Virus record (IMG/VR): IMGVR_UViG_3300032255_000174
Coordinates: 1 to 38,571 of that record
Length of the DNA stretch: 38,571 nt
Source: a virus
Taxonomy: Duplodnaviria; Caudoviricetes
Reading direction: 5' to 3' (one strand)
Below the pieces are notes generated by a model that searched no databases, had not been told where the DNA came from, and saw nothing but the letters and a program-made list of their open reading frames with translations. The translations under genes were made by a program, and so were the position numbers. This document shows positions 1,145 through 38,571 of the stretch, piece by piece (position 1 is the first letter of the stretch; every line of letters begins with the position of its first letter).

Positions 1145-3889
1145 TTAGACCGTGGTCACTTGCTGGAAGCCTGTCACTCCTGTGCCGGTAGCTTTGAACC
1201 AGATGGCCGGTGCTCCGACACCGTCAACTTGGATGATGATGGAACCGGGGTCGGCTGGAATGTTGCCCTCTGGAAGCTGCAAGGCAAATTTTATGAACTG
1301 GGTACCATTATCGTTGAACAGGATAGTGCGACCATTAAGCTGCAAATTCCGCTTGATGCGCGTTCCGCCGCCCGTCGCGCCTTGATCCAGAATGTCCAGT
1401 TTTGTGTCACCGTCATTTTTGACTGCAAATTCGACGTTCGGAAAGTTGCAGTTGATCAGGTCAGTGGAAATCGCTGCGGGCAAGGGTGGTGTGGTGGTTG
1501 GGTCTCCGCCAAATATCCAGACCCCGATAGCTGCAAGCGTGCCCAACCCATCGGAGATTAGCGCGCGCGTTTGCCCGTTTGAAATGCCAAAACACACGTC
1601 ATTGTCCTTGTCGCCGGGCAACATGACGTTCGATGTCACAAAGTTGTCTACCCCTGTTTGACCCGCAATCAACATGCCGTAGTTGTCCATATAGTCAACG
1701 CCATCGGGGTCAATGAGTAGGGCCGCTGGGCTATAATCCCGACGATATGTTGTGGTGAACCCGTTGGGCGCTCCGTCAAATTCGCCAGATACACCATGGC
1801 AGATATTGCCCTTGTGCAAAGACGTCCGCTGGTTATTGCGCGACAAAATACCGACACGGGCTCTGGTGTTCAGGGCGATGTTGTTGGTCGCAATTACGGC
1901 AGTGTTGGTGTCTTCTGTCGATGGGAGGGTCGAGATGGCAAACCCCGTCGTGTTGCGTGTGACGTTACTGTCAATCACGATCATGCGTGACTCACTGTAG
2001 ATGCCCGCAATTTGCTCTGTCTGATTTGCATCAACGTGGACCAGATTGTTAGCCACAACTGCATTGAGCGCGGTCTTTTTGACGTTGATAGAGCCTTGCT
2101 TGCCGCCCGAGTCAGACAATTTATTGCCGTCGATAAAGGCATCCGGTGTCTTACAATATATACCCTCTGCATCCTCACGGCCAATATTTTTCACATTGAT
2201 GATGCGGTTGTCCGTGATCTCAATGTATGCGCGGCCCGTGAGTGTTTGGGGCAACAGCGAGATACCCTGACACTCGTGATTTGTGTCTGCGCTGCCATAG
2301 GGCGAAGTGATGTCTTGAATATGACACCCTGTGACGATGAAGGACTCTAAGCTCGTGACGGTTCCAGCCAAAAGCGCACCTTGGATATTCTGGCCGCCAC
2401 TTACGCCAGAGGGTGCAGTGTTGTTCTCAATGGTTACACCGTCAACGCGGATGTCACCAATAATAGCGTCACGAAAAGTGAACCCATTCTGCGCACCTGA
2501 ATGGCTGCCATCTTTCCAAAGAAACTTTGTCAGCGTGTTGGTTGAGCTGTCCTCATAGCTGATCGCAATTCCCGTTGGCTTGCTTTCGCTATCCGCACAA
2601 TCCGTGGACCAAGTTGCGCCGGATTTAACGTGGAATGAGTCACCGTCAGCGACGAACTCGACACGGCGAGCTTTAATGAATGCACCGTTGCTGACCGTGA
2701 AAGCGTGGTCGGTAGATTCAACGCGACCGGGCCCGTTGATCACAATGGGGCCTGACAACGAAATAGTTGATACACCCAACACACGACCGTCGAGAAAAAT
2801 TTCGGTGTGACCAGCGGCAAGAAAAGCGTCCAGCGCGGCTGTGCCATCACCGATGAACGCATAATTGAAATGCTCGAGCAGCGCTTGCCCATATGGCTCG
2901 TAATTCACACCGCCTGCTGTCGTGATGACCGCTGCGGCAATCTGTGCAAGGTCGAGGGTAAAGGACACGTCACCCGCGCGCACGGTCTTCTTGCCTGCGC
3001 TGCCGAAAATGGACCGCAAAAAAGCAATCGGGCGGGTGTCGGCATAAAGGTCGGCCACGCTATCAAAGTTGAGAGAGGTGCTGACGGCTTGGCCGCTGAT
3101 CCCGACCAGATCAATCACATTGATGCCGTCGACGGCATAGCTGCCTGCGGCGGCGATCACATACTCGCCACGACCCGCGATCTGGGCGCGCTGGCCGACG
3201 GAAATGAAGCTTGTTGCAATAAGCTCGGCGAGAGACTGAAACGGCTGGACATCAGCTGAAATCAACACGTCGCTGTTTTCGCCAATGAGCCAGTTCCCCG
3301 CGTATGTCGTGGACGACGGAGGCGATGCAAGCGCGGTCAACGTGTCGTTCTTGGCGAAGGCCACGCCGTCAACCATCCCAGCCGCAGACACGCGGAAAAT
3401 ATTGCCCGCAGTAGCCCCCGTAGGAAACCCGCCAGAAGAGGCATCAAACGCGCCGATGATGCGGATGTCGCCACTGGCCAGCGAGGCAATCAGGGTGGCG
3501 TTATTGGCATCCCCTGCGGCGCGCAAATCAGATTCCGCCCCCAGTGATGTTACGTCGGCCTTTTCAGCCAGCATAGCGATAGTCGCCGAACTAACTGGCA
3601 GGTCGCCGATCCATGTCCAACTGCCGCTGCCCTGATCGCCAGACTTCAGATAGACTCCGTTGCGTTCGGGTGTGTCACCAAAAACAGAGCCAACGGCTCC
3701 GTCGTTCCAATTGAGGTCAGAAAGCAAGGTGGACCGCAATTTTTTTGCAGGCCCCAAGCGCGCTGAAATCAGAGTGATTAGAGCCTCCGCCGTGATGCGA
3801 ACGGTCGTGCCTTCGCGGTTTCCCAAAAGGTCATCGATGAGGCTGACAGACGTCAGATCGGAGGTTCGGTCACCATTGCTGTGTGGCAT
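1145..3889 (-). CDS. Tailspike / receptor-binding protein with probable right-handed beta-helix (depolymerase-like)
   Basis: 914 aa, last tail gene; N-terminal anchor with FDASSGGFP..G..RVSAAG motif; Asn/Gly-rich repeats (ITDNRI, IDGNKL, VANNLV, IDSNVT); C-terminal EGNIPADPGS..WFKATGTGVTGF. Confidence 0.75.
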   Translation of the reverse strand: MPHSNGDRTSDLTSVSLIDDLLGNREGTTVRITAEALITLISARLGPAKKLRSTLLSDLNWNDGAVGSVFGDTPERNGVYLKSGDQGSGSWTWIGDLPVSSATIAMLAEKADVTSLGAESDLRAAGDANNATLIASLASGDIRIIGAFDASSGGFPTGATAGNIFRVSAAGMVDGVAFAKNDTLTALASPPSSTTYAGNWLIGENSDVLISADVQPFQSLAELIATSFISVGQRAQIAGRGEYVIAAAGSYAVDGINVIDLVGISGQAVSTSLNFDSVADLYADTRPIAFLRSIFGSAGKKTVRAGDVSFTLDLAQIAAAVITTAGGVNYEPYGQALLEHFNYAFIGDGTAALDAFLAAGHTEIFLDGRVLGVSTISLSGPIVINGPGRVESTDHAFTVSNGAFIKARRVEFVADGDSFHVKSGATWSTDCADSESKPTGIAISYEDSSTNTLTKFLWKDGSHSGAQNGFTFRDAIIGDIRVDGVTIENNTAPSGVSGGQNIQGALLAGTVTSLESFIVTGCHIQDITSPYGSADTNHECQGISLLPQTLTGRAYIEITDNRIINVKNIGREDAEGIYCKTPDAFIDGNKLSDSGGKQGSINVKKTALNAVVANNLVHVDANQTEQIAGIYSESRMIVIDSNVTRNTTGFAISTLPSTEDTNTAVIATNNIALNTRARVGILSRNNQRTSLHKGNICHGVSGEFDGAPNGFTTTYRRDYSPAALLIDPDGVDYMDNYGMLIAGQTGVDNFVTSNVMLPGDKDNDVCFGISNGQTRALISDGLGTLAAIGVWIFGGDPTTTPPLPAAISTDLINCNFPNVEFAVKNDGDTKLDILDQGATGGGTRIKRNLQLNGRTILFNDNGTQFIKFALQLPEGNIPADPGSIIIQVDGVGAPAIWFKATGTGVTGFQQVTTV

Positions 3890-16847: not shown

Positions 16848-17366
16848 CTATTGGGCCGCACTATTGGGCAGTGACGCAAACCAGTCGTCAATGATGCCGG
16901 GGATCGCCTGCAGATCGTCGTCCGATATTCCCAAGAAAGGCCGCGCGGGGATGTTGCCCCACGGGATAGAATGGAAATGATCGCGGCCCAGTTTGTCTTT
17001 TCCGATGAAAGCACCAAACGCACCTTGCGCGGCCCCGAATTGCATCACGGCGGCCTGAATGGCGTTGGAGCCGACTTCGACCGAACTGGGGCCATATTGG
17101 TGGAAAATACCCTGACGCATACCACCAGACTGGTGCAGCGGGCCCTTGAATGACTTATTCTCCTTGGCATAGCGGTTGAGCGTGGTCTGGGATCGCGGCG
17201 CGAAAGGGGTGCCGTCAGGGGAGATACCGCTATCGATCCGGTCACGGCTCGTCTTTGCCAGATAGGCACCAATACGCTCCATCGGCTTGCTTAGATCGCC
17301 GAGGTCAGTAGAGAGCCGCGCCAATGCGCTGGCGACCGCGTCATCATTGATTTCGACCTTATACAT
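16848..17366 (-). CDS. Phage virion morphogenesis protein (Mu gpG / tail completion)
   Basis: PDGTPFAP, VEVGSN..QAAVMQFG, IPARPFLGIS. Confidence 0.92.
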   Translation of the reverse strand: MYKVEINDDAVASALARLSTDLGDLSKPMERIGAYLAKTSRDRIDSGISPDGTPFAPRSQTTLNRYAKENKSFKGPLHQSGGMRQGIFHQYGPSSVEVGSNAIQAAVMQFGAAQGAFGAFIGKDKLGRDHFHSIPWGNIPARPFLGISDDDLQAIPGIIDDWFASLPNSAAQ

Positions 17367-17376
17367 GCTATATATA
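17347..17376 (+). promoter_or_regulatory. Candidate sigma70-type promoter firing antisense to the late operon
   Basis: TTGATT (17347-17352), 16-nt spacer, TATATA within TGCTATATATA. Confidence 0.5.
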
Positions 17377-17380
17377 CCTC

Positions 17381-17452
17381 ATTGGCTGGCATCTACCTGC
17401 TGCTCTTCGGGAGTGGAGACGCTTGGGGCGATGAATGGAGGGGTCAGCCAGC
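17381..17452 (+). ncRNA. Candidate structured small RNA convergent with muF
   Basis: Closing stem 17383-17390/17443-17450, inner hairpins 17401-17415 and 17420-17430; G-U pairs favour the plus strand; upstream promoter. Confidence 0.5.
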
Positions 17453-18682
17453 TTTCCCTTTGATGAAGTAAGACAACAGTGACAGTCGCCTGCGGCGCTT
17501 GTGCAATTCAAACACGCCAACAATCGTGCGGCCATTTTCGGTTAGTTCATACTTGAGACCAGGCCGCCCGCTTTTGGTCGGCGCGACGCCAACCAACCGA
17601 CCAAATTCGATAAGGCGGGGCAACAACGCAAAATCACGCCCCGTGACCCCTATCTGACCTCGTAGGGCTTCGCCGCTAATATTGCCGTGGCTCGCGATAA
17701 TATGTCTGACCTCATTTCCCTTAATGGCATAGTCGAACCCTTTGACAGACGTGCCCGTCAATTGCTCGATCGTCGCGGCTTGGTTTTGGGCCACAAGGCC
17801 CAAGGTCTGGCGCGATGTTGTGCTACTGTCTTGTCCCGCCCGCACGCGCGCAAACATCCGGCCAAGGCTATCGGCCAAAGACGGCAGCGAGCGGTAACTT
17901 TGAGCCAGATCGTCTTTCACCGCATCGGGAACTTCGCGCATGAAGCCGCGCGCTGAATTGTAATTCCAGTCAACAGCTTTTTGGGCCATGACGGCAATCA
18001 ACTCGCTGCGGTCCTTGTCCGGTGAGTAACCCCAACCCTTGCCGATACCAGGTTGCAGCCCGGTGCGCGGATCAATGGAGGCCCAATTATCTGGAAGTCT
18101 GGCATTCGGATCGCCGCCCATGCGGCCAATACCGGCCTCGGATCGGGCACCTTCGACCGTGCAGCCACAGCCCCAATCGTTCGGCGGGAAATGCGCGGCC
18201 CAGAACGGGTGATCAGGGGGCAGGGCGACACCATCCCATGCAAGGTGGTTCAATCTGGGGTGTGCGGCACCGCTGTGGATGTAGATCCAATATTTGTAAC
18301 TTCCATCGACCAGCTGTGCATGGCGACCTGCCATATACGAGGTGCGCATGTTGGTGCGGTAGATTGTGCGCATGCGCCATTCCTCGCCGCGCTTGGTGCC
18401 TTCGCCGGTCCAGCCGTGCCAACCACGTTTTTCCACGATTGATTTGAAATCGCGTTTGAACGCGTCGAAACCGGTGCCATCAATAACGGCCTTGTCGACG
18501 GCGGTGGCCAAATCAGCAAGCAGGTCGGCTTTGACGGCACCGGCGACCATAAATGCACGATCATGTTGGTTGTAAGCCGGGTCAGCCGCGCCAAAGGTCG
18601 GGCGCAGCTCGCGCAGGCGCAAGCGGTAGGCTGCCACTTGGGCATTAAACGGTTTGCGAAACGTGGAGACGAGATCAGGCAT
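17444..18682 (-). CDS. MuF (gp30-like) minor head protein with C-terminal PBECR-like nuclease domain
   Basis: MuF motifs RAFMVAGA, TIYRTN, HPRLNH..WDG, FPPNDWGCGC; extension with RHIIASHG...E..RGQIGVT..DF..LP resembling PBECR3. Confidence 0.85.
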   Translation of the reverse strand: MPDLVSTFRKPFNAQVAAYRLRLRELRPTFGAADPAYNQHDRAFMVAGAVKADLLADLATAVDKAVIDGTGFDAFKRDFKSIVEKRGWHGWTGEGTKRGEEWRMRTIYRTNMRTSYMAGRHAQLVDGSYKYWIYIHSGAAHPRLNHLAWDGVALPPDHPFWAAHFPPNDWGCGCTVEGARSEAGIGRMGGDPNARLPDNWASIDPRTGLQPGIGKGWGYSPDKDRSELIAVMAQKAVDWNYNSARGFMREVPDAVKDDLAQSYRSLPSLADSLGRMFARVRAGQDSSTTSRQTLGLVAQNQAATIEQLTGTSVKGFDYAIKGNEVRHIIASHGNISGEALRGQIGVTGRDFALLPRLIEFGRLVGVAPTKSGRPGLKYELTENGRTIVGVFELHKRRRRLSLLSYFIKGKAG

Positions 18683-20378: not shown

Positions 20379-22055
20379 TCACAGGCCCCCTCGGATGCGG
20401 ACACCCAATGGTTGGCGGTAGGGGTTTTTCTCATGGCGGTCGTCATGCTTTGGATAGTTCGACATCTCACCAGGTGCGATGTCCACCGCACGCGGCACAG
20501 GGCGGTATCCATATTCGATCCAGCGCATCCGGCTCGCGAAATACGCCAATGCCAGACCGACGGCATAGTCGCCGTGTCGCTTTTTGGCTTTTGCGCCGGT
20601 CTCGGACGTGCGGGTCGGTGGGATGCGTGGAATGCCCCTGATTTCTTTGACGATACGCATGTCTGACAGGTGGTCATCATCTGCGACGATGGCGATTGAG
20701 TTGTCTTCAAAGGCGGCTTTGAGCGGCGGCATATTGAGCCGATACCAATCCTCCGAGAACTTGATCTCCCAAACGAGGCCAGCGCTGTCTTCAGAGGCCC
20801 GCAGCCCATACATGCGGCCCAAGTCCTCGGCGAGATTGGCACCGATGCCTGTGGCGTCAACAGCGAAGCCGACAAGCCGGTGCCGGATGTGATCAATGAT
20901 GGTTTTGCAGATCATCTTTTGCTCGGCAAAAGGCACACCGCGCAGCTCGACGCAGAGCGCTTCGGTGCGCTTGAGGTTTTGCTCGATCGCAAGAATTGGG
21001 ATCACGGAAAGATCGGAGACCCGTGCCACGTCAAAGCCACCCGCATAGCGTTTCTCAAGGTCAAGCGTTTCAAGGGCTGTCTCCAACGTCTCCATGAAGG
21101 GTGACAGCAGCGATTGCCGCTCCAGCTCGGGGCGGTGCAGGTAGTCGGCCGGAAGCTCCAGGCGCAGGATCGGCGAGGTTGCGGTCATGCGCGCCTCGAT
21201 CAGCGGGGCAGGAAGCCATGTGCCGGATCCCATGGATGGAACGCAGAACAATTCTTGATCGGCGCTGGAGCCATAGAAGTCGATCAGATTGTCACGCCAT
21301 TCGGCTTCGCCCGCTGCGGTCCATTCGGTGCCATTAACCAGACAGATGCGCTGGAAGAGACCATCGTTGAGCGCATTATCCAGATCGATGCGGATGTGCA
21401 TACCCGGTTTACGGCCCGCCAGCATGTCTTGGATATGCGCGTTAAACGGGTTTTCCGTGCCAAAATGGGTCGAGCACACCACAACCTGACCGCCCCACAT
21501 CAGGAAGGCCATTGCGGCCTCGATCAACCGTTCCAGATCATCAACAAATGCGGCTTCGTCTATGATGACGAGACCTTGCTTGCCGCGCAGGCCGCGCGGT
21601 GCAGAGGAAAGCGCCATGATTTCAAAGCCGGATGCAAACCGGATGCGGAAGGCTTGAATGGACTTGTCACCCTCGTCGTCGCCTTGGTCAAACAGGAAGC
21701 TCTCTTGCGCCAAAGCAGCGATCGAGAAGGCCTTCGCCCACATGGCACAGGCGTCGATGAACTCGCGGGTCATCTCACGTGAATACGAGATATATATGAC
21801 GTCCATGCCGCCAGCTTTCTTCTGCTTGCCAGCCCGCAAGACAGCCGCAGCAGCCAAAGCCCAAGTCAGGCCGATCCGGCGCGACTTTTCGATAAACAGA
21901 ACTTGTGCAGAAACACTGTCGAGCAGTGAAACGGCACGTTGTTGATATCCAAGCAGAACGGCGGGCAAGCCCACTTCGCCGATGACGTCTGGCATACCTG
22001 ACGTGGCTTCAACGCGCTGGCGCTCCCACTCGGCTTTTGAGATAGGCGCGGTCAT
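20379..22055 (-). CDS. Terminase large subunit (Mu gp28-like)
   Basis: EKSRRIGLTW Walker A-like, IIDEAAF Walker B, GFDVAR, VDATGIG, HGDYA nuclease motifs. Confidence 0.95.
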   Translation of the reverse strand: MTAPISKAEWERQRVEATSGMPDVIGEVGLPAVLLGYQQRAVSLLDSVSAQVLFIEKSRRIGLTWALAAAAVLRAGKQKKAGGMDVIYISYSREMTREFIDACAMWAKAFSIAALAQESFLFDQGDDEGDKSIQAFRIRFASGFEIMALSSAPRGLRGKQGLVIIDEAAFVDDLERLIEAAMAFLMWGGQVVVCSTHFGTENPFNAHIQDMLAGRKPGMHIRIDLDNALNDGLFQRICLVNGTEWTAAGEAEWRDNLIDFYGSSADQELFCVPSMGSGTWLPAPLIEARMTATSPILRLELPADYLHRPELERQSLLSPFMETLETALETLDLEKRYAGGFDVARVSDLSVIPILAIEQNLKRTEALCVELRGVPFAEQKMICKTIIDHIRHRLVGFAVDATGIGANLAEDLGRMYGLRASEDSAGLVWEIKFSEDWYRLNMPPLKAAFEDNSIAIVADDDHLSDMRIVKEIRGIPRIPPTRTSETGAKAKKRHGDYAVGLALAYFASRMRWIEYGYRPVPRAVDIAPGEMSNYPKHDDRHEKNPYRQPLGVRIRGGL

Positions 22056-37919: not shown

Positions 37920-38160
37920 TTCGCGCTTTCTAGCAGATACAGCCATTCCAATTCTTGTGGAGTTAAATCCAGCTGATCTGTCGCGGCGCGCCCCAAAACC
38001 GTTAAATAGACCTCACAGCCAGATTATTTAAACACCCATTTAATGGTTTTCCGTTTTGGTGCCCCCTGTTTGGTGTATTGTTGCCACGAGCACGGTTTCT
38101 TTGCAGCGTATTGAGCTGACTTTGTTGTTGTTGGTCCAACCTAACTACTACAAAAACGAC

Positions 38161-38571
38161 GCGCATCTTGATCAGACGTTCACGTGTCCCGATCAGAACA
38201 CGAATGCGCTCTGACGCCTCACTACGGACATGCACCTGGTTGAACCAGCCGGTTCGTGCCAAATGAGCCAGTCCTTCGGCATCGCCACGATCCGATTTGT
38301 TAATGCGGCCCGACAAGGCTTTGTGGGCTAATCGCGCATCAATGCAGATGATCGGCAGGCCACGCTTCTCCAACTCGCGGGTCAACCAGATCGACAAAAT
38401 CCCACTCTCATGGACAACACGCGCAGCATCAGGTGCATGTTTTAGCACGAACGCGGCAATCTGATCCGGATCAGACGAAACCTCGCCACGTGAAGTGATG
38501 GCACCGTTGCTATCAACAACACAGATCGTGACTGATTTGACGGATACGTCGAGCCCTACATAATGTGACAT
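38161..38571 (-). pseudogene. Truncated IS110 family transposase (DEDD domain only)
   Basis: YVGLDVS, VVHESG, NKSDRGDAEGLA; similarity lost after RERLIKMR, followed by non-homologous AT-rich read-through to 38002. Confidence 0.88.

Follow-up and report, generated by a model that had tools for sequence, protein, structure and literature searches.

An antisense RNA family behind PBECR3 nuclease tips of phage head proteins, with a candidate role as RNA antitoxin

How is a cell that produces a virion-borne nuclease protected from it when the place of the immunity gene holds no gene? The question is raised by a 38,571-nucleotide (nt) stretch of Caudoviricetes DNA (IMG/VR virus record IMGVR_UViG_3300032255_000174; this whole stretch is called the window), in which muF, the gene of a Mu gpF-like minor head protein with a predicted nuclease tip, is followed by a gap of 77 base pairs (bp; 17367-17443) before a gpG-like gene. 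MuF toxins are described with protein immunity in the part of PMC5576092 that deals with them. An earlier reading of the sequence alone (the original prediction) had given the extent of the gap correctly and placed in it a structured RNA antitoxin transcribed from the opposite strand. Comparative evidence now argues that the gap holds a member of a new RNA family that is real, conserved, covarying and antisense, has a promoter-like site in the immunity-gene slot, and is tied to an intact nuclease domain. To this extent the prediction stands, and its term "type III-like" survives only as an analogy.

A conserved antisense RNA in the gap after muF

The element is a predicted non-coding RNA (ncRNA) of about 75 nt (17381..17455, plus strand) that would fold into a three-way junction; its ends, 17381 and 17455, were placed from promoter spacing and from the closing stem. 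Upstream stand the two hexamers named in the original prediction, 16 nt apart: a predicted -35 box, TTGATT (17347..17352, plus), lies antisense within the first gpG codons, where homologues carry TTGA, and a predicted -10 box, TATATA (17369..17374, plus), lies between the start codon of gpG and its predicted ribosome-binding site GAGGT (17376..17380, minus). A strict promoter scanner returned 0 sites in the window element because it demands T at the last -10 position; the -10 boxes of alphaproteobacteria often lack this last T. The 5′ strands of helices P1 (17382-17389) and P2 (17392-17397), with a conserved CAU motif at 17390-17392, occupy 17382..17397 (plus). They are followed by P3 (17400..17416, plus), a 5-bp stem with the 7-nt loop CUUCGGG (17405-17411) that has the shape of an anticodon arm and belongs to a G36-G37 class, and by the hairpin P4 (17420..17430, plus), which is common to both topological forms of the family. 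The 3′ strands of P2, a GGG motif (17441-17443) and the 3′ strand of P1 (17444-17451) lie at 17437..17451 (plus), antisense across the muF stop codon, just as the overlap of the closing stem had been foreseen. All three stems drawn by eye exist in the window sequence, but a fourth helix, P2, which joins the closing stem to the junction, had been missed. The original prediction also lacked the anticodon-like loop, the circularly permuted form within ORFs and the different RNAs of other MuF tips, all described below.

Support for this fold is comparative, not single-sequence. The window RNA taken alone folds no better than shuffles (minimum free energy -27.7, z -1.08, 25 of 200 shuffles as good), neither strand of the element exceeds them, and ViennaRNA favours another interior by 1.8 kcal/mol (-27.8 when free versus -26.0 with both hairpins enforced). 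The sample of 240 muF loci, two named phages and the window gave 241 usable rows with 171 distinct muF 3′ ends, 108 of which have a PBECR3-type match. Antisense gaps behind homologous tips share the promoter-like site, P1, a CAU/GGG internal motif, P2 and the hairpins P3 and P4. When 74 of 97 delineated RNAs were aligned with MAFFT, which is blind to structure (the window copy, near-duplicates and copies with misplaced ends were left out), 77.1% of cells paired, compared with 62.0% after shuffling and at most 47.9% in slid controls, and 252 cells had changed on both sides (107.5 when shuffled). When tested with a tree-keeping null, three P3 pairs reached the floor of E 0.017, one further P3 pair reached 0.05 and one P2 pair 0.067; the covariation proposed as a check behind PBECR3 tips is thus found in P3. 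It is not caused by coding, since none of 93 homologues has P3 within the muF reading frame. A pseudoknot was also sought with this test, to which invariant pairs are invisible, and the column pairs with the strongest covariation belonged to nested helices or to adjacent loop bases. With RNAalifold, one alignment (A4) yielded P3 alone and another (A7) P4 alone, because MAFFT ignores structure.

Models that excluded the window recognize its element. The first (R1, from the 74 homologues) ranked 17376-17455 (plus) first in the window with 21.1 bits and E 0.003, the next-best match having 10.4 bits, and the refined one (R2) gave 28.9 bits with 0 of 22 pairs marked as non-standard; the match ends at 17455 or 17456 depending on the model. 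Each locus has one copy of the 77-position model and no tandem array. Among 93 homologues the paired columns contain 189 G-U and 59 A-C cells, in agreement with the earlier remark that G-U pairs favour the plus strand. The spacing pattern TTG-N19..21-TA was found at 83 of 97 gap-bearing PBECR3 loci versus 1 of 31 gap-less loci, and TTGA at the -35 place at 82 of 97 versus 9 of 31; the -35 box within the gpG codons relaxes where the gap is lost. When 401 Pseudomonadota genomes were searched with Pfam, 14 PBECR3 matches were obtained, and the model found five of these loci, four of them new and out of sample. Whole-genome searches with the model in 302 genomes gave five matches, namely three training loci, one orphan copy and one (L290) that is probably due to chance. 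The Rfam 15 covariance models matched nothing over the element in the window, in 20 muF loci or in 20 loci of a permuted form described below. No tRNA (RF00005) was matched in the window, and ARAGORN reported none in L166, an identical match to the window's muF, or in L004; a D arm, T arm and acceptor end are absent from the element, in which only P3 resembles an anticodon arm.

Association with the nuclease domain

The distribution of the RNA supports a tie to the intact nuclease domain and not to muF or gpG. All intact PBECR3-type tails with a measurable gap (95/95) keep at least 45 nt, and the gap is lost in 8 of 12 degenerate tails; the four that keep it are three single-residue variants and one frameshifted gene. 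Conserved structure beside homologous tips, on which the original prediction had staked itself, is present: of 99 PBECR3 tips of MuF with intact catalytic residues, 94 are followed by a model match, the misses being L212, at a contig end, and L026, L091, L096 and L108, where the gap is present with a variant RNA. The muF genes without a tip run directly into gpG and lack the element. The RNA can also outlive the nuclease. In L124 (3496-3808) the PBECR3 tip is frameshifted and the RNA is retained, and the orphan copy L287:1501-1578 (minus; the same as L291:11922-11999), of 40 bits, lies upstream of gpT in a Mu-like head region. No muF was found in that incomplete genome, and the P3 loop of the orphan is identical to the loop of Roseovarius tRNA-Pro(TGG); it could be a captured shield or a remnant. 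This asymmetric co-loss, with the gap kept beside intact tips and the RNA surviving the nuclease, fits the prediction of a toxin-antitoxin pair.

The RNA recurs behind the PBECR3 domain in well over a hundred other phage or prophage sequences, and appears to follow the domain and not the gene. Among the 150 best distant homologues, examined for a coding imprint of antisense P4 (words like T-S/P-E/K-T or N-V-R-N; the pattern was set after examples had been seen), the imprint occurred within 30 residues after 57 of 81 internal PBECR3 domains and in 27 of 1378 control windows, and in multi-domain polyvalent proteins it is repeated after successive PBECR3 domains. A scan of DNA alone for P4 with an antisense -10 box gave 68 viral loci, 51 of them distinct. 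PBECR3 lay just upstream on the other strand in 40 of the 51 and on the far side in 0 of 51; with a scrambled -10 box, 2 of 15 loci lay beside PBECR3. A TTG -35 element, absent from the scan pattern, was correctly spaced in 35 of the 40 PBECR3-adjacent loci (background 7.7%). Many of these RNA genes are situated inside an open frame, often that of a polyvalent protein, with a predicted sigma-70-type promoter of their own. Most of the scan loci fold as a circular permutation, in which P1 has a cap and the open end is formed by the P3-equivalent stem, in many cases with a U-run after it; a CAU/GG core with at least four of five P2 pairs was present in 24 of 40 loci (mean 3.2 and maximum 9 in 1000 shuffles).

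The muF gene (17444..18682, minus; 412 amino acids (aa); PF04233, E 9.6e-13) encodes the PBECR3-type BECR domain in residues 297-404 (17471..17794, minus). The profile PF18812 (PBECR3) scores 23.5 bits here with E 5.6e-5, under the Pfam cut-off of 30, and is carried by most close homologues of the protein. The predicted active site is intact, with H327 (17702-17704), H332 (17687-17689) and S404 (17471-17473) on the minus strand. This agrees with the PBECR domains of polyvalent proteins in the corresponding section of PMC5512222, where active members have a His plus C-terminal Ser/Thr layout and fusions to MuF also occur; domain, active site and fusion are thus shared with the window. Pfam found only MuF and PBECR3 in the protein, and no family of the ToxN, CptN or TenpN type. 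The structure model of the tip is confident (predicted local distance difference test, pLDDT, 95.6), and its top fold matches are BECR RNases: BrnT (Z 6.1; root-mean-square deviation 3.0 over 75 aligned residues), CdiA-CT NC101 (Z 5.0) and colicin D (Z 4.7). On the model, these matches indicate a common BECR arrangement and not a substrate. Foldseek gave no match to the tip model at E of 0.001 or below, and searches with the tip alone gave one protein, three short unrelated-looking loci and no plasmid.

The surroundings are those of a Mu-like prophage, in which Mu transposase, terminase, portal, MuF, gpG, protease I and gpT each have a Pfam match. The gpG-like virion morphogenesis gene lies at 16848..17366 (minus; PF05069, E 3e-27), and a fragment of an IS110-family transposase at the right end of the window (38002-38571, minus). 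The nearest named relatives of the MuF protein belong to Rhodobacteraceae and Sphingomonadaceae. MuF with its C-terminal PBECR3-type tip is placed between portal and gpG in this transposase-bearing genome, which is the layout of the MuF polymorphic toxins in the main text of PMC5576092: a MuF N-terminus, an exchangeable C-terminal tip and a location in the head module of a temperate phage.

Proposed function and its rivals

On balance, the evidence leans towards the RNA being a direct-binding antitoxin of the virion-borne predicted BECR ribonuclease (RNase), type III-like in action, because the gap is never missing beside an intact nuclease, the RNA outlives the nuclease, copies follow domain by domain, and the shape is kept through permutation. 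Inhibition would probably proceed through imitation of a tRNA substrate. A housekeeping-type promoter would drive the RNA in the lysogen and during virion assembly, whereby the cell producing MuF-PBECR3 would be protected and lysogens would be immune to incoming copies. Inside the head, MuF would bring the nuclease to the next cell, and there the nuclease could act briefly before RNA accumulates, cutting host RNA, likely tRNA anticodon loops, and stalling a defence or a competitor. The binding core would be P4 together with the CAU/GGG internal loop; in the Mu-like form the anticodon-like P3 loop would be a decoy, either added or ancestral. Leaky expression of muF may also be damped by convergent transcription.

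The likeness to tRNA is found in the loops. The P3 loop has 7 nt in 85 of 93 homologues. Among 45 distinct P3 loops, 15 are within one base of an anticodon loop of 42 Roseovarius tRNAs (null 2.2; 0 of 5000 shuffles), and 41 have a purine at position 37 (null 22). UA occupies positions 36-37 in 19 of these loops and GG in 18, dinucleotides that form the contexts of t6A37 and m1G37. The nearest arm was that of an initiator-type tRNA-Met in 32 of 83 cases, and P4 loops end in GG at the matching place in 40 of 44. Arg399 was present in 18 of 26 tips of the GG class versus 0 of 50 of the UA class, and Arg319 in seven further GG-class tips; with five class changes on the tree, positions picked post hoc and a non-significant independent-pair test, a protein-RNA specificity code in these residues is a lead only.

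Several observations weigh against the antitoxin and its tRNA mimicry. Under the tree-keeping null, no P1 or P4 pair reaches significance on the alignment made without regard to structure. U33 is kept in 24 of 45 P3 loops versus 39 of 39 tRNAs, and the P3 loop of the window differs by two bases from the host loop closest to it. The permuted form lacks the anticodon-like P3 loop and L026 keeps P3 without P4 beside an intact tip, so that no single hairpin is universal. A UUCG-type loop is an equally good reading of P4, and another P4 loop variant, used as a scan pattern, gave mostly chance matches, 1 of 62 lying beside PBECR3. Iyer et al. argue, in the PBECR section of PMC5512222, that PBECRs may spare tRNA, and all fold matches of the tip have Z of 6.1 or less and include RNases that do not act on tRNA. 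The four intact tips with a gap and variant RNA named above have a weak model match or none, and the co-loss, once corrected for kinship, is underpowered (three independent pairs in the same direction, 0 in the opposite, p 0.25).

The one-to-one linkage and the structural conservation would equally be expected if the RNA were a working partner of the PBECR domain, that is, a cofactor, a guide, co-packaged cargo, or a tRNA-like decoy against host anticodon nucleases that is matured by the domain. Anticodon-like loops of Met/Ile and Pro/Leu/Arg classes would suit such decoys, RNA binding has been suggested for inactive MuF-C (PMC5512222, PBECR section), and a virus tRNA that neutralizes PARIS has been published (PMC11464382). 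This reading is nevertheless unlikely. The asymmetry runs the wrong way for a maturase, as the RNA persists without a working nuclease (L124, L287) and the gap is never missing from intact tips where it can be measured, and a promoter of this type suggests that the RNA is made in the lysogen, at a stage at which the late muF operon would be expected to be silent. The position of the RNA, which complements the muF-gpG message throughout, shares bases with the muF stop and lies directly next to the ribosome-binding site of gpG, would in turn suit a type I-like control, in which the antisense transcript or its promoter silences a leaky toxic gene through mRNA pairing or transcriptional interference. 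Strong promoters within open reading frames (ORFs) would reduce read-through, and co-loss with catalytic residues is also predicted. However, cis-antisense pairing has no need of conserved loop bases, yet P4, CAU/GGG and 7-nt loops are kept across two circular permutations, and such conserved tertiary-type motifs exceed the requirements of pairing. Copies stand after successive domains of one gene, and different BECR tips have different, internally conserved RNAs at the same spot. Shape would thus seem to weigh more than complementarity, judging from P3 covariation and the permuted CAU/GGG core, and silencing of this kind is rather improbable.

That there is no separate RNA at all, and the conserved bases form a late-mRNA terminator or translation element, a self-cleaving motif or a small immunity peptide, is very improbable. 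The window fold is unexceptional alone, and the gap is indeed crossed by short frames, both in the window and in roughly half of the homologues (48 and 39 of 88). No ORF lies wholly inside the window gap, as had been claimed, but two cross it (17287-17463, plus, 58 aa; 17368-17535, minus, 55 aa), which the claim had passed over. The gap lengths of 88 homologous loci are spread over all three frames (42/33/13) and therefore no peptide is conserved; a small immunity peptide was rejected on this ground, and the small downstream immunity ORF typical of MuF polymorphic toxins has no counterpart in the 77-bp gap. Against an element of the late mRNA, the excess of G-U over A-C cells favours the antisense strand, a tip-less muF runs into gpG without the element, Rfam ribozymes and leaders give no match, and the element also occurs within ORFs with its own -35 and -10 boxes.

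Known systems, other tips and significance

In the type III toxin-antitoxin families ToxIN, CptIN and TenpIN, as outlined in part of PMC5086642, an endoribonuclease is blocked directly by a small structured ncRNA, a mode of action that is shown there and proposed here. The families form one operon, with the antitoxin upstream on the same strand as tandem repeats that are cut by the toxin, a terminator between the two and a pseudoknot. In the window, by contrast, a single copy lies downstream on the opposite strand with its own promoter-like site, folds as a three-way junction and accompanies a BECR fold that is fused to a virion protein. Since the defining genetic layout of the known families (upstream same-strand operon, tandem repeats with terminator, a ToxN, CptN or TenpN toxin) is absent, the proposed "type III-like toxin-antitoxin" is kept only as a working analogy; the RNA would work like a type III antitoxin yet outside the known type III families. 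The nearest functional precedent, by analogy, is the RNA of AbiF/RCd22 from a Clostridioides difficile prophage, where, in the part of the preprint concerned (bioRxiv 10.1101/2025.04.15.648962), an RNase-type toxin is neutralized by direct binding of an associated structured ncRNA. AbiF is an Abi_2/AbiD/F protein linked there to Cas13 ancestry and to abortive infection, whereas the BECR domain resides on MuF or polyvalent proteins and its RNA is convergent with, or nested antisense in, the ORF. Colicin D and the CdiA tRNases share the BECR fold at Z 4-5 (5znm is titled as a tRNase domain) and, unlike the window, have protein immunity factors; the same substrate is not established because Z is weak. 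The MuF toxins of PMC5576092 likewise have a protein in the slot that holds an RNA in the window, and the words antisense and non-coding are missing from the main text of that paper. The PBECR section of PMC5512222 proposes no immunity partner or RNA and leaves the target open, and the relevant parts of a 2026 BECR classification (10.64898/2026.08.28.747851) and of PMC11980606 mention no such RNA. A literature search found no description of a PBECR-RNA pairing, subscription journals and preprint supplements being largely outside its reach.

Other tips have also been found with RNAs of their own. A second BECR-like tip (HPEL...TSFRRL) is accompanied by a strongly conserved, multi-stem antisense RNA of about 105 nt in the gap after muF (minus strand; L121, L130, L134, L140, L143, L146, L151, L155, L165, L220, L228, L074, L139, L084 and L203). 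Compensatory change was seen in 16 of its 31 pairs among 15 sequences, Rfam gave no match in the four loci scanned (L121, L140, L074, L165), and in eight variants of the tip with altered His or Ser motifs, as judged by eye, the gap or the RNA is missing. A third tip is followed by antisense cloverleaf RNAs with a T-arm (L232:3791-3867, L244:2155-2225 and L090 about 3730-3822, all minus, and L306), of which ARAGORN called that of L232 tRNA-Lys(CTT) and that of L244 an undetermined tRNA. A further conserved multi-hairpin antisense RNA occurs in the gap after muF (minus) of L160, L205, L210 and L221, whose tips are weakly like MuF_C. In RcapMu (L293, record 21525-21616), which resides in a laboratory lysogen amenable to experiments, and in RR1-B (L299), the gap after MuF-PBECR2 is structured and comes with a promoter-like site on the antisense strand; the PBECR2 of JBD25 has no gap. 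For this analogous but different RNA of RcapMu, two 14-base motifs and the tags rcc0097-0099 gave 0 matches in Table S1 of PMC5546546, which lists no small RNA at those tags. The 123-nt gap of Pseudomonas phage B3 (L295:2669-2791), with an annotated 32-aa ORF34, has a -10-like box ahead of a strong antisense fold and may hold a further RNA of this kind. In Rhizobium phage RHph_N28_2 (L005 about 1830-1925, minus) a promoter-like site in antisense orientation and a structured RNA without a model match lie behind a stand-alone PBECR3 gene. ORFs of 65-106 aa stand directly behind non-BECR or degenerate MuF tips (L142, L154, L158, L164, L296, L297) and are candidate protein immunity genes. ADP-ribosyltransferase and metallopeptidase tips are mostly followed by such small ORFs (L142, L158, L164, L296, L297), with L162 and its 72-nt gap as an exception. 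These sequences suggest a division of labour in which BECR-type tips go with RNAs, and ADP-ribosyltransferase or metallopeptidase tips with small ORFs.

A wider idea, which is tentative and on present evidence somewhat doubtful, is that virion-delivered PBECR nucleases as a class use RNA immunity, the domain and its cognate antisense RNA gene forming a cassette that is nested in the ORF when the domain is internal. The RNAs would be tRNA-derived decoys, with a cloverleaf (L090, L232, L244), a three-way junction bearing an anticodon arm (window) and the permuted core as stages, and their loops would read out the tRNA target of each nuclease. According to the PBECR section of PMC5512222, up to 26% of polyvalent phage proteins contain PBECR domains, for which neither a target nor an immunity factor is known; with a cognate RNA for every domain, both could be addressed by direct tests. 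RNA genes with full predicted promoters would lie hidden antisense in long phage ORFs, outside the scope of intergenic RNA screens, and the recurring "TSET...SI...NVN" linkers of polyvalent proteins would be the coding imprint of these genes. If the antitoxin reading is true, the RNA should permit cloning of the otherwise toxic domain, its loops would predict substrates, and RNA antitoxins would be extended from abortive-infection operons to polymorphic, virion-delivered effectors.

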